Part shown: positions 37,432-39,896 of the stretch, piece after piece
How positions within the stretch are numbered: position 1 is the first letter of the stretch
How the letters are laid out: each line of letters opens with the position of its first letter
Sequence record: PP925829.1
Source: Escherichia phage IdasGreatGrand
Length of the DNA: 47,946 bases
Direction: 5' to 3' (one strand)
The notes under the pieces: generated by a model
What the model saw: only the letters and a program-made list of their open reading frames with translations
The model's database searches: none
What the model was told of the DNA's origin: nothing
Position numbers and translations under genes: made by a program

Positions 37432-39009
37432 ATGTTGGAGTTTAGTGTTATTGAAAGAGGCGGGTATATTCCTGCAGTAGAAAAAAATAAGGCATTCCTA
37501 CGAGCAGATGGTTGGAATGACTATTCCTTTGTTACAATGTTTTATCTTACAGTCTTTGATGAGCATGGTGAAAAATGCGATATCGGAAATGTTAAAATTG
37601 GTTTTGTAGGTCAAAAAGAAGAAGTAAGCACTTATTCATTAATAGATAAAAAATTCAGTCAACTCCCTGAAATGTTTTTTTCCTTAGGTGAAAGCATTGA
37701 CTACTATGTTAATCTCAGCAAATTAAGCGATGGTTTTAAACATAACCTTCTTAAAGCTATTCAGGATTTAGTAGTATGGCCAAATCGATTAGCCGACATT
37801 GAAAATGAAAGCGTCCTTAACACCTCATTACTTAGAGGGGTAACTCTTTCAGAAATTCATGGACAGTTCGCACGTGTGTTAAATGGTTTGCCAGAATTGT
37901 CAGATTTCCACTTTTCATTTAATAGAAAAAGTGCTCCCGGATTCAGTGATTTAACTATACCTTTTGAGGTGGCGGTTAATTCTATGCCCAGCACGAACAT
38001 TCATGCTTTTATCGGGCGGAATGGGTGTGGTAAAACAACAATTTTGAATGGAATGATTGGTGCAATCACCAACCCAGAAAACAATGAATATTTTTTCTCT
38101 GAAAATAATAGACTTATCGAGTCAAGAATCCCAAAGGGATATTTTCGATCGCTTGTTTCAGTTTCGTTTAGTGCATTTGATCCTTTTACTCCTCCTAAAG
38201 AACAACCTGACCCAGCAAAAGGTACACAATACTTTTATATTGGACTCAAGAATGCTGCCAGCAATAGTTTAAAATCACTAGGCGATCTCCGCTTAGAATT
38301 CATTTCAGCATTTATTGGTTGTATGAGAGTAGATAGAAAAAGACAACTCTGGCTTGAAGCTATCAAAAAACTAAGTAGTGATGAAAACTTTTCAAATATG
38401 GAACTCATCAGCCTCATTTCTAAATATGAAGAGTTAAGACGTAATGAACCACAGATTCAAGTGGACGATGATAAATTCACTAAATTGTTTTATGACAATA
38501 TCCAGAAATATCTGCTTCGAATGAGCTCTGGACATGCAATTGTTTTATTTACTATCACAAGATTAGTAGATATCGTTGGCGAAAAGTCATTAGTTTTATT
38601 CGATGAACCAGAGGTTCATCTGCATCCACCTTTGCTCTCTGCTTTTTTACGAACATTAAGCGACTTACTCGATGCACGCAATGGTGTAGCAATAATTGCA
38701 ACTCATTCCCCAGTAGTACTGCAAGAGGTTCCAAAATCCTGCGTGTGGAAAGTCCTACGGTCAAGAGAAGCAATAAATATTATCCGTCCGGATATTGAGA
38801 CATTCGGTGAGAACTTAGGTGTTTTAACTCGTGAGGTGTTTTTACTTGAAGTGACAAATTCTGGATACCACCACTTATTATCGCAGTCCGTTGATTCAGA
38901 GCTTTCTTATGAAACCATTCTAAAAAATTATAATGGTCAGATAGGATTAGAAGGTCGAACCGTTTTAAAAGCGATGATAATGAACAGAGATGAAGGTAAA
39001 GTACAATGA
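37432..39009 (+). CDS. ea59: ATPase Ea59-like (Walker A GRNGCGKTT; ABC/AAA_21-type)
   Basis: 525 aa, same length as lambda Ea59; Walker A and LFDEPEVHLHP motifs; 4-nt overlap with downstream gene as in lambda. Confidence 0.8.
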   Translation: MLEFSVIERGGYIPAVEKNKAFLRADGWNDYSFVTMFYLTVFDEHGEKCDIGNVKIGFVGQKEEVSTYSLIDKKFSQLPEMFFSLGESIDYYVNLSKLSDGFKHNLLKAIQDLVVWPNRLADIENESVLNTSLLRGVTLSEIHGQFARVLNGLPELSDFHFSFNRKSAPGFSDLTIPFEVAVNSMPSTNIHAFIGRNGCGKTTILNGMIGAITNPENNEYFFSENNRLIESRIPKGYFRSLVSVSFSAFDPFTPPKEQPDPAKGTQYFYIGLKNAASNSLKSLGDLRLEFISAFIGCMRVDRKRQLWLEAIKKLSSDENFSNMELISLISKYEELRRNEPQIQVDDDKFTKLFYDNIQKYLLRMSSGHAIVLFTITRLVDIVGEKSLVLFDEPEVHLHPPLLSAFLRTLSDLLDARNGVAIIATHSPVVLQEVPKSCVWKVLRSREAINIIRPDIETFGENLGVLTREVFLLEVTNSGYHHLLSQSVDSELSYETILKNYNGQIGLEGRTVLKAMIMNRDEGKVQ

Positions 39010-39896
39010 AAAAACTACCTCTTCCAGCGAGAACTTATAGCGAAATGCTTAATAAATGCTCGGAAGGTATGATGCAGATAAATGTTAGAAATAATTTCAT
39101 TACTCACTTCCCCACTTTTTTGCAGAAAGAACAACAATATAGAATATTAAGCTCGACAGGTCAGTTATTTACCTACGACAGGACACACCCTCTTGAGCCT
39201 ACAACCTTAGTAGTTGGTAACCTGACAAAGGTTAAATTAGAAAAGCTTTATGAAAATAATCTCCGAGATAAAAACAAACCCGCTAGAACATATTACGATG
39301 ACATGCTTGTTTCATCAGGTGAAAAATGTCCATTTTGTGGTGATATAGGACAGACAAAAAATATAGATCATTTTCTTCCTATTGCACATTATCCTGAATT
39401 TTCGGTGATGCCTATTAATTTAGTTCCATCGTGCCGCGACTGCAATATGGGAGAGAAAGGTCAAGTTTTCGCAGTAGATGAGGTACACCAAGCGATTCAT
39501 CCCTATATCGACAAGGACATTTTTTTTCGTGAGCAATGGGTATATGCAAATTTCGTTTCCGGAACTCCGGGTGCTATCAGTTTTTATGTTGAATGCCCGG
39601 CGAACTGGAGGCAGGAAGACAAACACAGAGCTCTTCATCATTTCAAGCTATTAAATATTGCTAACAGGTATCGTTTGGAGGCAGGGAAGCACTTGAGTGA
39701 AGTGATTACTCAAAGAAACTCTTTCGTAAAAGTTATAAGGAAATATAGTTCAACCGCAACGTTTCAGCAGCTACAGTCAGAATTTATTGAAGCAAATCTG
39801 AAACCTATTATAGATTTGAATGACTTCCCCAATTATTGGAAAAGAGTTATGTATCAGTGCCTAGCAAACTCGGAAGATTTTTTCAGAGGGATCTAG
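39006..39896 (+). CDS. ea31: HNH endonuclease Ea31-like
   Basis: 296 aa, same length as lambda Ea31; HNH motif CPFCGD...IDHFLP...CRDCN. Confidence 0.8.
   Translation: MKKLPLPARTYSEMLNKCSEGMMQINVRNNFITHFPTFLQKEQQYRILSSTGQLFTYDRTHPLEPTTLVVGNLTKVKLEKLYENNLRDKNKPARTYYDDMLVSSGEKCPFCGDIGQTKNIDHFLPIAHYPEFSVMPINLVPSCRDCNMGEKGQVFAVDEVHQAIHPYIDKDIFFREQWVYANFVSGTPGAISFYVECPANWRQEDKHRALHHFKLLNIANRYRLEAGKHLSEVITQRNSFVKVIRKYSSTATFQQLQSEFIEANLKPIIDLNDFPNYWKRVMYQCLANSEDFFRGI

Follow-up and report, generated by a model that had tools for sequence, protein, structure and literature searches.

Among temperate phages lambda serves as the reference, but no biological role has yet been assigned to two of its larger genes. 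These genes – ea59 and ea31 – are routinely removed for space in lambda vectors and in engineered therapeutic phages. A pair very like them lies in Escherichia phage IdasGreatGrand (PP925829.1), of which a stretch of 47,946 nucleotides (the window) is analysed here, and the question it raises is what such a pair might do for its carrier. The genes and the profile models of their family were already known, as was the annotation of the products as ATPase and HNH nuclease, and to these the sequence adds nothing new. Our preferred reading, to which we give a probability of about 0.65, is that ea59-ea31 is a lambda operon on a 3.3-kb low-GC cassette of a lambda-like mosaic phage and encodes a divergent Septu-type ATPase-nuclease system.

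A lambda cassette in a mosaic phage

In the window ea59 (37432..39009, plus strand) encodes a PtuA-like ABC/SMC-type ATPase of 525 aa and ea31 (39006..39896, plus strand) a PtuB-like HNH nuclease of 296 aa, each from an ATG start. The ORF list and the sequence place the stop of the first gene on the start of the second (39006..39009, plus strand): at the junction, ...ACAATGAAA..., the stop codon TGA lies within an ATGA, four nucleotides of which are common to both reading frames. This overlap suggests translational coupling, and an overlap of 1-4 nt or a near-abutment of the two genes is retained in homologous loci. That the ORFs are not chance products follows from their full length, from hundreds to thousands of homologues, and from the invariance of their catalytic residues. 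An integrase ORF (35405..36709, plus strand) lies upstream of the pair and tail-fibre genes (40550..43746, minus strand) lie downstream, while GC content is 0.35-0.39 over 37000-40000 as against 0.45-0.59 on either side. An earlier note had described an overlapping ATPase-HNH pair in an AT-rich block between int and the tail fibres; reading frames, motifs and composition all confirm that description.

Comparison to lambda by local blastn (NC_001416) showed that positions 36900-40215 correspond to lambda 27510-24190 at 99.5% nucleotide identity over some 3.3 kb, and that the flanks on both sides are unrelated to lambda there. Lambda identity within, combined with non-lambda sequence on both sides, marks the block (36900..40215, plus strand; examined also by megablast against phages and by its low GC) as a discrete mosaic cassette. 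Lambda ea59 (25396-26973, 525 aa) and ea31 (24509-25399, 296 aa) have the same lengths as their counterparts here, an identical 4-nt overlap, and the same location between att/int and the tail-fibre genes, in the same orientation with respect to both. The suggestion that the pair comprises equivalents of the lambda genes turned out to be an understatement: at the DNA level identity is 99.5-99.8%, the two Ea31 proteins are 100% identical, and Ea59 departs from its lambda counterpart at three residues only (T181A, V381I and M438V). Judged by their sequence, these are the lambda genes themselves and not mere equivalents.

The surroundings tell a different story, with an integrase/attP module and a tail-fibre module that differ from those of lambda and with no ea47. 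The nearest phage match to the int/attP module is Enterobacter phage CobraSix, at 77.8% identity. The placement of the pair next to attP in the earlier note holds only roughly: int and attP here belong to a module other than that of lambda, and identity to lambda sets in just outside the position that lambda's P arm would have. We considered ea47 as a component of the system and ruled it out: it is missing here and from every homologous locus, which puts it outside the system.

The non-coding margins of the cassette were also examined. Within the upstream leader (36900..37431, plus strand; upstream alignment, identities, promoter scan, Rfam and RNA folding) only the last ~130-165 nt, roughly 37268-37431, are kept in diverged copies, and DNA farther upstream is unrelated. 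The promoter scan found a single promoter-like site before ea59, a weak sigma-70-like match at 37383-37410 (TTGCCA-16-TATTTT, 9/12), and fewer such sites in the region than in shuffled controls, which is weak evidence for a promoter active in a lysogen. No Rfam family was found within 36500-40400, and the 178-nt conserved leader showed no unusual RNA structure, folding no better than shuffles (z = +1.26). The trailer that follows ea31 (39897..40215, plus strand; lambda homology and identities in relatives) is ~81-83% identical in relatives that are themselves 92-93% identical. Homology to lambda stops, at 40215, inside an inverted repeat with 18-nt arms (40208-40243); no flanking repeats mark the block.

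Two Septu-like proteins

A critical issue is the kind of system to which the two proteins belong. Ea59 opens with an N-terminal domain specific to the family (aa 1 to ~155), to which are added the ATPase head, an insert of helices (~aa 283-381) and, at the C-terminus, a helical extension (aa 480-519). Motif conservation, scored across 115 homologues, is complete at the Walker A motif GRNGCGKTT (aa 195-203; 38014..38040, plus strand) for G195, R196, N197, G198, G200, K201 and T202; at the ABC signature-like SSGH (aa 365-368; 38524..38535, plus strand), where a His stands at the Gln position of LSGGQ; at D391 and E392 of the Walker B and D-loop segment LFDEPEVHLHP (aa 389-399; 38596..38628, plus strand); and at the H-loop ATHSP (aa 423-427; 38698..38712, plus strand). 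Matches to the Pfam families AAA_21 (58.6 bits, cut-off 27) and AAA_15 (49.5 bits, cut-off 32.1) agree with these motifs, which mark Ea59 as an ATPase of the ABC/SMC type that has kept all its catalytic motifs.

In Ea31 an HNH/zinc-finger core lies between an additional helical region at the N-terminus (aa 1 to ~95) and a C-terminal domain of helices (aa 203-287). The core (39327..39446, plus strand) contains CPFCG at aa 108, DH at aa 121-122 and NLVPSCRDCN at aa 138-147, the elements of an HNH beta-beta-alpha-metal site with a CxxC...CxxC zinc finger, and residues C108, C111, D121, H122, N138, C143, C146 and N147 are invariant. AF2 monomer models are confident for both proteins (pLDDT 92 and 86), and the model of Ea31 is that of an HNH nuclease with a helical C-terminal domain.

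Evidence that the likeness to Septu extends beyond general architecture came from profiles and from folds. PADLOC models, which carry no curated cut-off, match essentially end to end: PDLC00282 (PtuA1/PtuA) matches aa 4-522 of the 525 of Ea59 through profile positions 3-518 of 520 (1.1e-184), PDC-M01A matches aa 3-521 (2.1e-201), and PDC-M01B matches aa 1-294 of Ea31 (5.8e-113). With the model of Ea59 as Foldseek query the best 46 PDB matches are all PtuA chains, including those of Septu 8EEA and 8EE4 (E 2e-11 to 5e-7); with that of Ea31, PtuB chains are the only matches (probability 0.98-0.99). The predicted folds thus match PtuA and PtuB specifically. Family-to-family comparison by hhalign aligned the Ea31 family with the canonical PtuB family at 92.5% probability (E 5e-7), over 114 columns reaching beyond the HNH core, and the Ea59 family with one retron PtuA at 95.3%, from Walker B through the C-terminus. 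By direct sequence comparison, the similarity to validated PtuAB is no more than marginal (phmmer E 1e-4 for the ATPase and 0.18 for the nuclease). As in Septu, the genes are an adjacent, co-directional ATPase-HNH pair inherited together, and the ATPase is of the ABC/SMC type (AAA_15/AAA_21) with intact Walker A, signature, Walker B and H-loop. The Septu-like architecture first proposed from motifs is borne out by the full-length PtuA and PDC-M01A/B matches, by the exclusive fold matches and by the alignment of Ea31 with PtuB; ea59 and ea31 are distant but genuine relatives of PtuA and PtuB.

The distance is nonetheless considerable. Sequence identity to stand-alone Septu PtuAB (E. coli PDB 8EEA/8EE7/8EE4; EcB88) is just 12-16%, and the curated NCBIfam models score far below their cut-offs (NF041760 for PtuA, 49.5 bits against 500; TIGR02646, 13.5 against 52). 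In the comparison with PtuA/PtuB and OLD-family profiles that the earlier note had proposed, the PADLOC PtuA model is matched full length and the curated PtuA and PtuB cut-offs are missed; OLD membership fails for want of a Toprim domain. Compared to Septu PtuA, Ea59 carries a domain of ~150 aa ahead of Walker A (~190 residues precede this motif, against ~87 in retron PtuA and ~40 in Septu EcB88), and its helical insert is ~80-100 aa shorter, with ~190 residues from Walker A to Walker B as against ~270-300. The His of SSGH replaces the Gln of retron PtuA and the Leu of E. coli Septu; the signature of PtuA has been given as LSDGQR (PMC12819146). Ea31 has ~65 N-terminal residues more than Septu PtuB. 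Searches with the N-terminal domains of Ea59 (aa 1-183) and Ea31 (aa 1-101) against PDB sequences and Pfam, at E-values up to 10, returned nothing meaningful. Missed cut-offs, extra N-terminal domains and a shorter insert in Ea59 define a divergent sub-family.

Among known systems the best sequence and Foldseek matches for both proteins are the effectors of type I-A retrons (Ec78/Eco7 and Ec83 PtuAB; NF041760 and TIGR02646), with hhalign probabilities of 95% for the ATPase and 84-92% for the nuclease. Membership of that class (Septu type II) was rejected all the same: neither a reverse transcriptase nor msr/msd lies beside the pair here or in the homologous loci inspected, Rfam is empty over 36500-40400, and the NF041760 score is 49.5 against 500. 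The adjacent genes do match the A and B models of PADLOC PDC-M01 full length and so belong with that candidate, an unpublished bioinformatic prediction of Payne et al. without a published test; in a survey, PDC-M01 calls duplicated Septu calls on identical gene pairs (PMC11811056).

Linkage and distribution of the pair

The ATPase gene lies immediately upstream of the nuclease gene in 62 of the 64 divergent loci with enough upstream DNA, and homologues of ea59 and ea31 are almost always inherited together. Their settings are prophage cargo slots, integrase-flanked islands and defence islands. A Vibrio copy occupies an island with two integrases and a DUF3987 gene; an enterobacterial prophage carries the pair between att and int; copies in Pseudomonas and Aeromonas are bare two-gene insertions; an E. 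coli island copy adjoins an SMC_N/MComp1/CTD1 system; and a Klebsiella copy sits in a CP4-type island next to another AAA_15/AAA_21 ATPase. Copies also occur on viral contigs; in one case a methyltransferase and a further ATPase accompany the pair beside the J tail gene. The cassette moves between lambdoid phages, prophages of other kinds, integrative islands and bare sites on chromosomes, and its neighbours are often other defence genes.

The wider sub-family of ATPase-HNH systems comprises 4,328 clusters at 50% identity. Across 50,697 phage records the family is limited to lambda-type records and two metagenomic phages, and of 5,426 complete E. coli genomes only 68, for the most part laboratory K-12 lysogens, contain the exact cassette; this restricted distribution weighs against our preferred reading. 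Matches of 100% identity in assemblies of Streptomyces, Oceanobacillus, Bradyrhizobium and the like were set aside as contamination with lambda DNA.

Probable function and a proposed mode of action

That the genes are cargo, rather than serving the virion or replication, had been proposed at the outset, and three findings agree with it: neither ea59 nor ea31 is essential for lambda in a CRISPRi screen (PMC10695390), the cassette has mosaic boundaries, and homologues occupy prophage cargo slots and defence islands. In characterised Septu systems immunity needs the Walker and HNH motifs, and DNA is nicked or tRNA-Tyr cut (PMC12819146; PMC13096335); protection against phage by EcB88 likewise depends on Walker and HNH residues (PMC13096335). 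Given that ea59 and ea31 are genuine, though distant, relatives of such systems, the pair is probably a mobile defence cassette, a role that for lambda we infer by analogy. Our literature search found no experimental report of protection by lambda ea59/ea31 and no searchable paper naming ea59 together with Septu.

Other readings of the pair deserve consideration. During the 1970s-80s a lambda-induced endonuclease that maps to the b region was purified, and it figured in discussions of in vitro packaging. It is conceivable that ea59 and ea31 encode an accessory nuclease for lambda DNA metabolism, an ATP-dependent endonuclease that aids recombination, packaging or breakdown of host DNA during lytic growth and plays no part against competitors. 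Such a role would accord with the position of the genes, co-directional with and downstream of the early leftward operon, and with the labels that ea59 has received: a recent lambda gene table lists it as 'ATP-dependent endonuclease' (PMC10695390), and the title of Zhou et al. 1994 (via PMC2653506) has 'ea59 endonuclease gene'. We nevertheless consider it unlikely. The genes are dispensable for plaque formation, the pair also stands alone in chromosomes and non-phage islands without phage DNA metabolism, and its nearest characterised relatives are immune effectors.

Less probable still is a selfish cassette, in which Ea31 would act as a homing-type endonuclease spreading the block among related phages with the ATPase as an accessory. 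HNH homing endonucleases are common in phages, and the sharp mosaic edges, the near-identical block in phages with differing flanks and a 92%-identical copy in an unrelated type of element all have the look of such spread. Against this, the fold of Ea31 is specifically that of PtuB, including the helical C-terminal domain, and not of a free-standing homing HNH protein; Ea31 is strictly coupled to a 525-aa ABC ATPase; the block is without flanking repeats; and the insertion sites are unrelated to one another, which means that there is no conserved homing target. Membership of the OLD/PARIS/Gabija group, where an ABC ATPase is joined to a Toprim nuclease, was rejected and retains hardly any probability. 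Ea59 has the AAA_15/AAA_21 domains in common with that group and partially matches AriA (1.8e-17) and the OLD-family structure 6P74 (3.6e-4), but these matches are confined to the Walker B-H-loop segment whereas the PtuA model spans the whole protein, and Pfam finds neither Toprim – the defining nuclease – nor DUF4435 in either protein, the nuclease being HNH.

How a Septu-type system encoded by ea59-ea31 might work can be sketched from its characterised relatives. The Septu PtuA-PtuB complex is a 6:2 horseshoe in which the nuclease is under nucleotide control and is inhibited by ATP. By analogy, Ea59 would oligomerise via its helical insert, and its C-terminal helices would clamp the helical domain of Ea31, so that the nuclease stays silent as long as nucleotide is bound. 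Release or activation of the complex would follow a signal – a foreign protein or an altered nucleotide state – from an element that invades or competes, and the HNH site may then nick DNA and/or cut a tRNA, stopping replication of the competitor, possibly at the cell's cost. The extra conserved N-terminal domains of Ea59 and Ea31 are the best candidates for family-specific sensing or target binding. Given the different architecture of the two proteins, both the oligomer and its regulation may differ from those of PtuAB.

When the system might act is suggested by the arrangement of the locus. The Ea proteins of lambda are synthesised early and in an N-dependent manner. As the genes are co-directional with int and downstream of it across attP, transcription of the early leftward operon could reach them in the circular phage; in the integrated prophage they would be severed from that operon and would rely on their own short conserved leader. 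It is possible, and we suggest it only tentatively, that the system is a weapon of the lytic phase rather than a shield of the lysogen, acting chiefly during the opening minutes of an infection or once the prophage has excised, with expression switched by the integration state of its carrier and with the orphan N-terminal domains forming a new kind of sensor. Such a weapon could be aimed at phages that co-infect the cell, at resident prophages or satellites, at plasmids, or at the tRNA or DNA of the host.

Should the pair prove to be a working Septu-type system, lambda would provide a genetically ideal model for a large ATPase-HNH sub-family, and engineered lambda derivatives without the b region would compete with other mobile elements differently from the wild type. 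A link between these genes and phage resistance is present in older nomenclature: by its title, the paper of Zhou et al. (Mol Microbiol 12:789) concerns a phage-resistance gene of Streptomyces lividans 66 similar to lambda ea59, and 'phage Hau3 resistance protein' remains the name of a Pseudomonas homologue 53% identical to Ea59.

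The ea59/ea31 pair and the cassette that carries it

Two genes overlap in the window, an ATPase ORF of 525 aa (ea59, 37432–39009, + strand) and a nuclease ORF of 296 aa (ea31, 39006–39896, + strand); the stop codon of ea59 and the start codon of ea31 share four bases at the junction ACAATGAAA. Ea59 has a Walker A motif (GRNGCGKTT, aa 195), a Walker B segment (LFDEPEVHLHP, aa 389), ATHSP (aa 423) and the signature motif SSGH (aa 365–368; window 38524–38535), while Ea31 has CPFCG (aa 108), DH (aa 121–122) and NLVPSCRDCN (aa 138–147). GC content is 0.35–0.39 over the pair against 0.45–0.59 in both flanks; upstream is an integrase ORF of like orientation, and downstream are tail-fibre genes on the opposite strand. 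The earlier note had described an overlapping ATPase and HNH nuclease in just such an AT-rich block between int and tail-fibre genes, and ORFs, junction, motifs and GC confirmed it in all details.

The note had also equated the genes with ea59 and ea31 of lambda, and the correspondence proved closer than equivalence. Direct comparison with lambda (NC_001416) gave a single unbroken match of 99.5% between window 36900–40215 and lambda 27510–24190; Ea31 is identical to the lambda protein, Ea59 differs by T181A, V381I and M438V, and the lambda record has equal gene lengths and an equal 4-nt overlap. Given this near-identity of DNA and protein, together with the shared lengths and overlap, the pair comprises the lambda genes themselves. 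A megablast search of 50,697 phage records found lambda and close derivatives, annotated ea59/ea31, at 99.8%.

The lambda match starts just past the position of lambda's outermost annotated P-arm Int-binding sites (27583–27634) and stops before ea47. At the position of this cassette lambda similarity is absent from both flanks: the tail-fibre module to the right differs from lambda's, and the integrase/attP module to the left (35405–36900) is not that of lambda. The 434-aa integrase ORF has as its sole relative among phage records a DUF3596-type integrase of Enterobacter phage CobraSix (77.8% nucleotide identity), a phage with umuDC-like genes in the slot equivalent to ea59/ea31. A 21-nt direct repeat (36656–36676 and 36864–36884, 90% identical) flanks the likely attP region. 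Exactly at the right end of the lambda-identical block (40215) lies an inverted repeat (40208–40243; 18-nt arms, no spacer), beyond which comes a + strand stretch rich in T. The repeat could act as a terminator for both of the transcription units that converge there, or mark a recombination junction. Directly after the cassette, at the position of lambda's ea47 and in its place, is a hydrophobic 95-aa ORF (40252–40539, − strand) with no match in Pfam or PADLOC.

The exact cassette is present in 68 of 5,426 complete E. coli genomes, chiefly K-12 laboratory lysogens, and among phage records the protein family is confined to 16 lambda-type records and two metagenomic phages. Lambda-identical sequence also occurs in assemblies named Streptomyces, Oceanobacillus, Bradyrhizobium, Chromatium, Shewanella and others (retrieved loci L013–L025, L027, L028, L036, L038, L040 and L043), often on low-coverage contigs of ~48.4 kb, and in MW057783.1, named 'Campylobacter phage CJLB-4'. 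These copies appear to be contaminating lambda DNA or mislabelled records, hence names in the Ea31 cluster such as 'HNH endonuclease [Paenibacillus ottowii]'.

Relationship to PtuA and PtuB

A likeness of the pair to Septu, whose ATPase and HNH nuclease (PtuA and PtuB) are shared with retron type I-A, had been proposed from architecture. PADLOC profiles, Foldseek and hhalign all support it, while the curated NCBIfam cut-offs were missed (Ea59, 49.5 bits against 500 for retron-type PtuA; Ea31, 13.5 against 52 for TIGR02646, PtuB). Ea59 matched end to end both the PADLOC PtuA model PDLC00282 (1.1e-184) and PDC-M01A (2e-201), and Ea31 matched PDC-M01B (6e-113). PDC-M01, whose models thus fit both proteins, is an unpublished PADLOC candidate, and a survey found gene pairs called as PDC-M01 to be called as Septu as well (PMC11811056). 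Pfam AAA_21 and AAA_15 exceeded their cut-offs in Ea59, Ea31 gave no more than a sub-threshold Pfam HNH hit, and the best PDB-sequence matches were PtuA and PtuB respectively, but weak and local. Nucleases of the Ea31 type form a large family of even length: 4,328 clusters were found at E ≤ 1e-3, and the best 150 of these are mostly 275–300 aa long.

Further evidence came from structure and from profile–profile comparison. AlphaFold models were built on 115-sequence alignments (pLDDT 86 for Ea59, 92 for Ea31). The first 46 PDB matches to the Ea59 model in Foldseek were all PtuA chains, some of retron I-A complexes and others of stand-alone Septu (8EEA, 8EE4); for Ea31, PtuB chains were the only matches with meaningful probability, covered end to end. 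In hhalign the broad Ea31-type alignment matched a PtuB family built from the canonical retron ptuA-ptuB of a Klebsiella plasmid (92.5% probability, E 5e-7, 114 columns); the aligned stretch begins ahead of the HNH core and extends into the C-terminal domain's first helix. The Ea59 family matched retron PtuA from Walker B to the C-terminus (95.3% probability). The Foldseek and hhalign matches thus establish the pair as a true, but remote, relative of PtuAB.

The distance is apparent in the differences. Walker A is preceded by ~190 residues in Ea59, compared with ~87 in retron PtuA and ~40 in Septu EcB88 (K43); the stretch from Walker A to Walker B is ~190 residues as against ~270–300 in characterised PtuA; and Ea31 has ~65 N-terminal residues more than PtuB. 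The extra N-terminal regions of both proteins are strongly conserved in the family alignments, and sequence searches with them match nothing. The signature SSGH, invariant in the Ea59 family, has His where retron PtuA – an active ATPase – has Gln, and where E. coli Septu PtuA – reported to lack ATPase activity – has Leu (PMC12819146). Because this residue differs between the active and inactive proteins, the His may mark a third regulatory state.

Linkage and genomic company

Among related loci with enough upstream DNA, the Ea59-like gene ends at the start of the Ea31-like gene, or no more than a few bases from it, in 74 of 77, and in 62 of 64 once lambda-identical loci are excluded. Outside the genes, copies with 92–93% DNA identity can be aligned only over ~130–165 nt directly upstream of the start codon and over ~200 nt beyond the stop; DNA farther out is unrelated. 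A Klebsiella Ea31, 92% identical, is located in a CP4-type integrative island and not in a lambdoid phage.

The neighbourhoods are varied: a Vibrio island that carries two integrases as well as a DUF3987 gene; an enterobacterial prophage present at two different chromosomal sites, with the pair between attachment site and int and convergent with int; bare two-gene insertions amid housekeeping genes in Pseudomonas and Aeromonas; an E. coli island where the pair adjoins an SMC_N/MComp1/CTD1 system; a Klebsiella CP4-type island where it adjoins another AAA_15/AAA_21 ATPase; and viral contigs, in one of which the pair is flanked by int and a CI-type repressor, and in another of which it adjoins the J tail gene, with a methyltransferase and one more ATPase close by. 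The distribution has the character of a self-sufficient, horizontally mobile cargo module associated with defence genes.

Such pairs repeatedly adjoin other ATPase-based candidate defence genes (loci L098, 4742–7407; L111, 1–4520; L118–L121, 1–2647), for example a D12 methyltransferase together with an AAA_15/AAA_21 ATPase of 578 aa, a CTD1/MComp1/SMC_N trio, and an SMC_N/AAA_15/AAA_21 protein of 717 aa whose partner has 302 aa.

Putative function and expression

As lambda ea59/ea31 the feature is already known, and its family has entries in PADLOC and PHROGs. The tie to phage resistance is old: Zhou et al. (1994), to go by the title, reportedly described a phage-resistance gene of Streptomyces lividans 66 resembling lambda ea59, and one homologue is still named 'phage Hau3 resistance protein'. 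Papers naming ea59 or ea31 count them among the non-essential genes of the b region, handy for payload insertion; a CRISPRi screen found both non-essential and labelled ea59 an ATP-dependent endonuclease (PMC10695390). The accessible literature is without an explicit statement or test of lambda carrying a Septu-type system, and our search found no paper with both 'ea59' and 'Septu'.

The suggestion that the pair is an anti-phage or anti-MGE cargo module gains support from its neighbourhoods and by analogy with PtuAB. Immunity by Septu and retron PtuAB needs both the ATPase and the HNH motifs, and the infection outcome is like abortive infection (PMC12819146, PMC13096335); once released, PtuAB nicks supercoiled DNA (PMC12819146), and Septu EcB88 cleaves tRNA-Tyr (PMC13096335). 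By the same logic an Ea59 oligomer would grip Ea31 via C-terminal helices, the HNH site being inactive as long as nucleotide is bound; a cue from a rival element would switch on DNA nicking, tRNA cutting or both, and so block that element. Specificity would probably come from the orphan N-terminal domains of both proteins.

The lambda Ea proteins were originally defined as early and N-dependent. Here the early-left genes, int, ea59 and ea31 are all on the + strand, so that transcription of the early leftward operon could run on into the pair while the phage genome is circular; integration at attP would part them. A promoter scan gave just a weak site before the pair. An internal promoter is nonetheless plausible, since a short conserved leader accompanies the cassette and the pair occurs by itself in other places.

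A further AT-rich module, likewise of two genes (29837–31265, + strand), encodes a 357-aa protein and a 125-aa ASCH-domain protein, downstream of a CI-type repressor ORF (29079–29768) in the slot of lambda's rexA/rexB. It may be a lysogen-expressed exclusion module of the same phage; its products match the PADLOC candidate PDC-M11A/B at 2e-133 and 7e-52.
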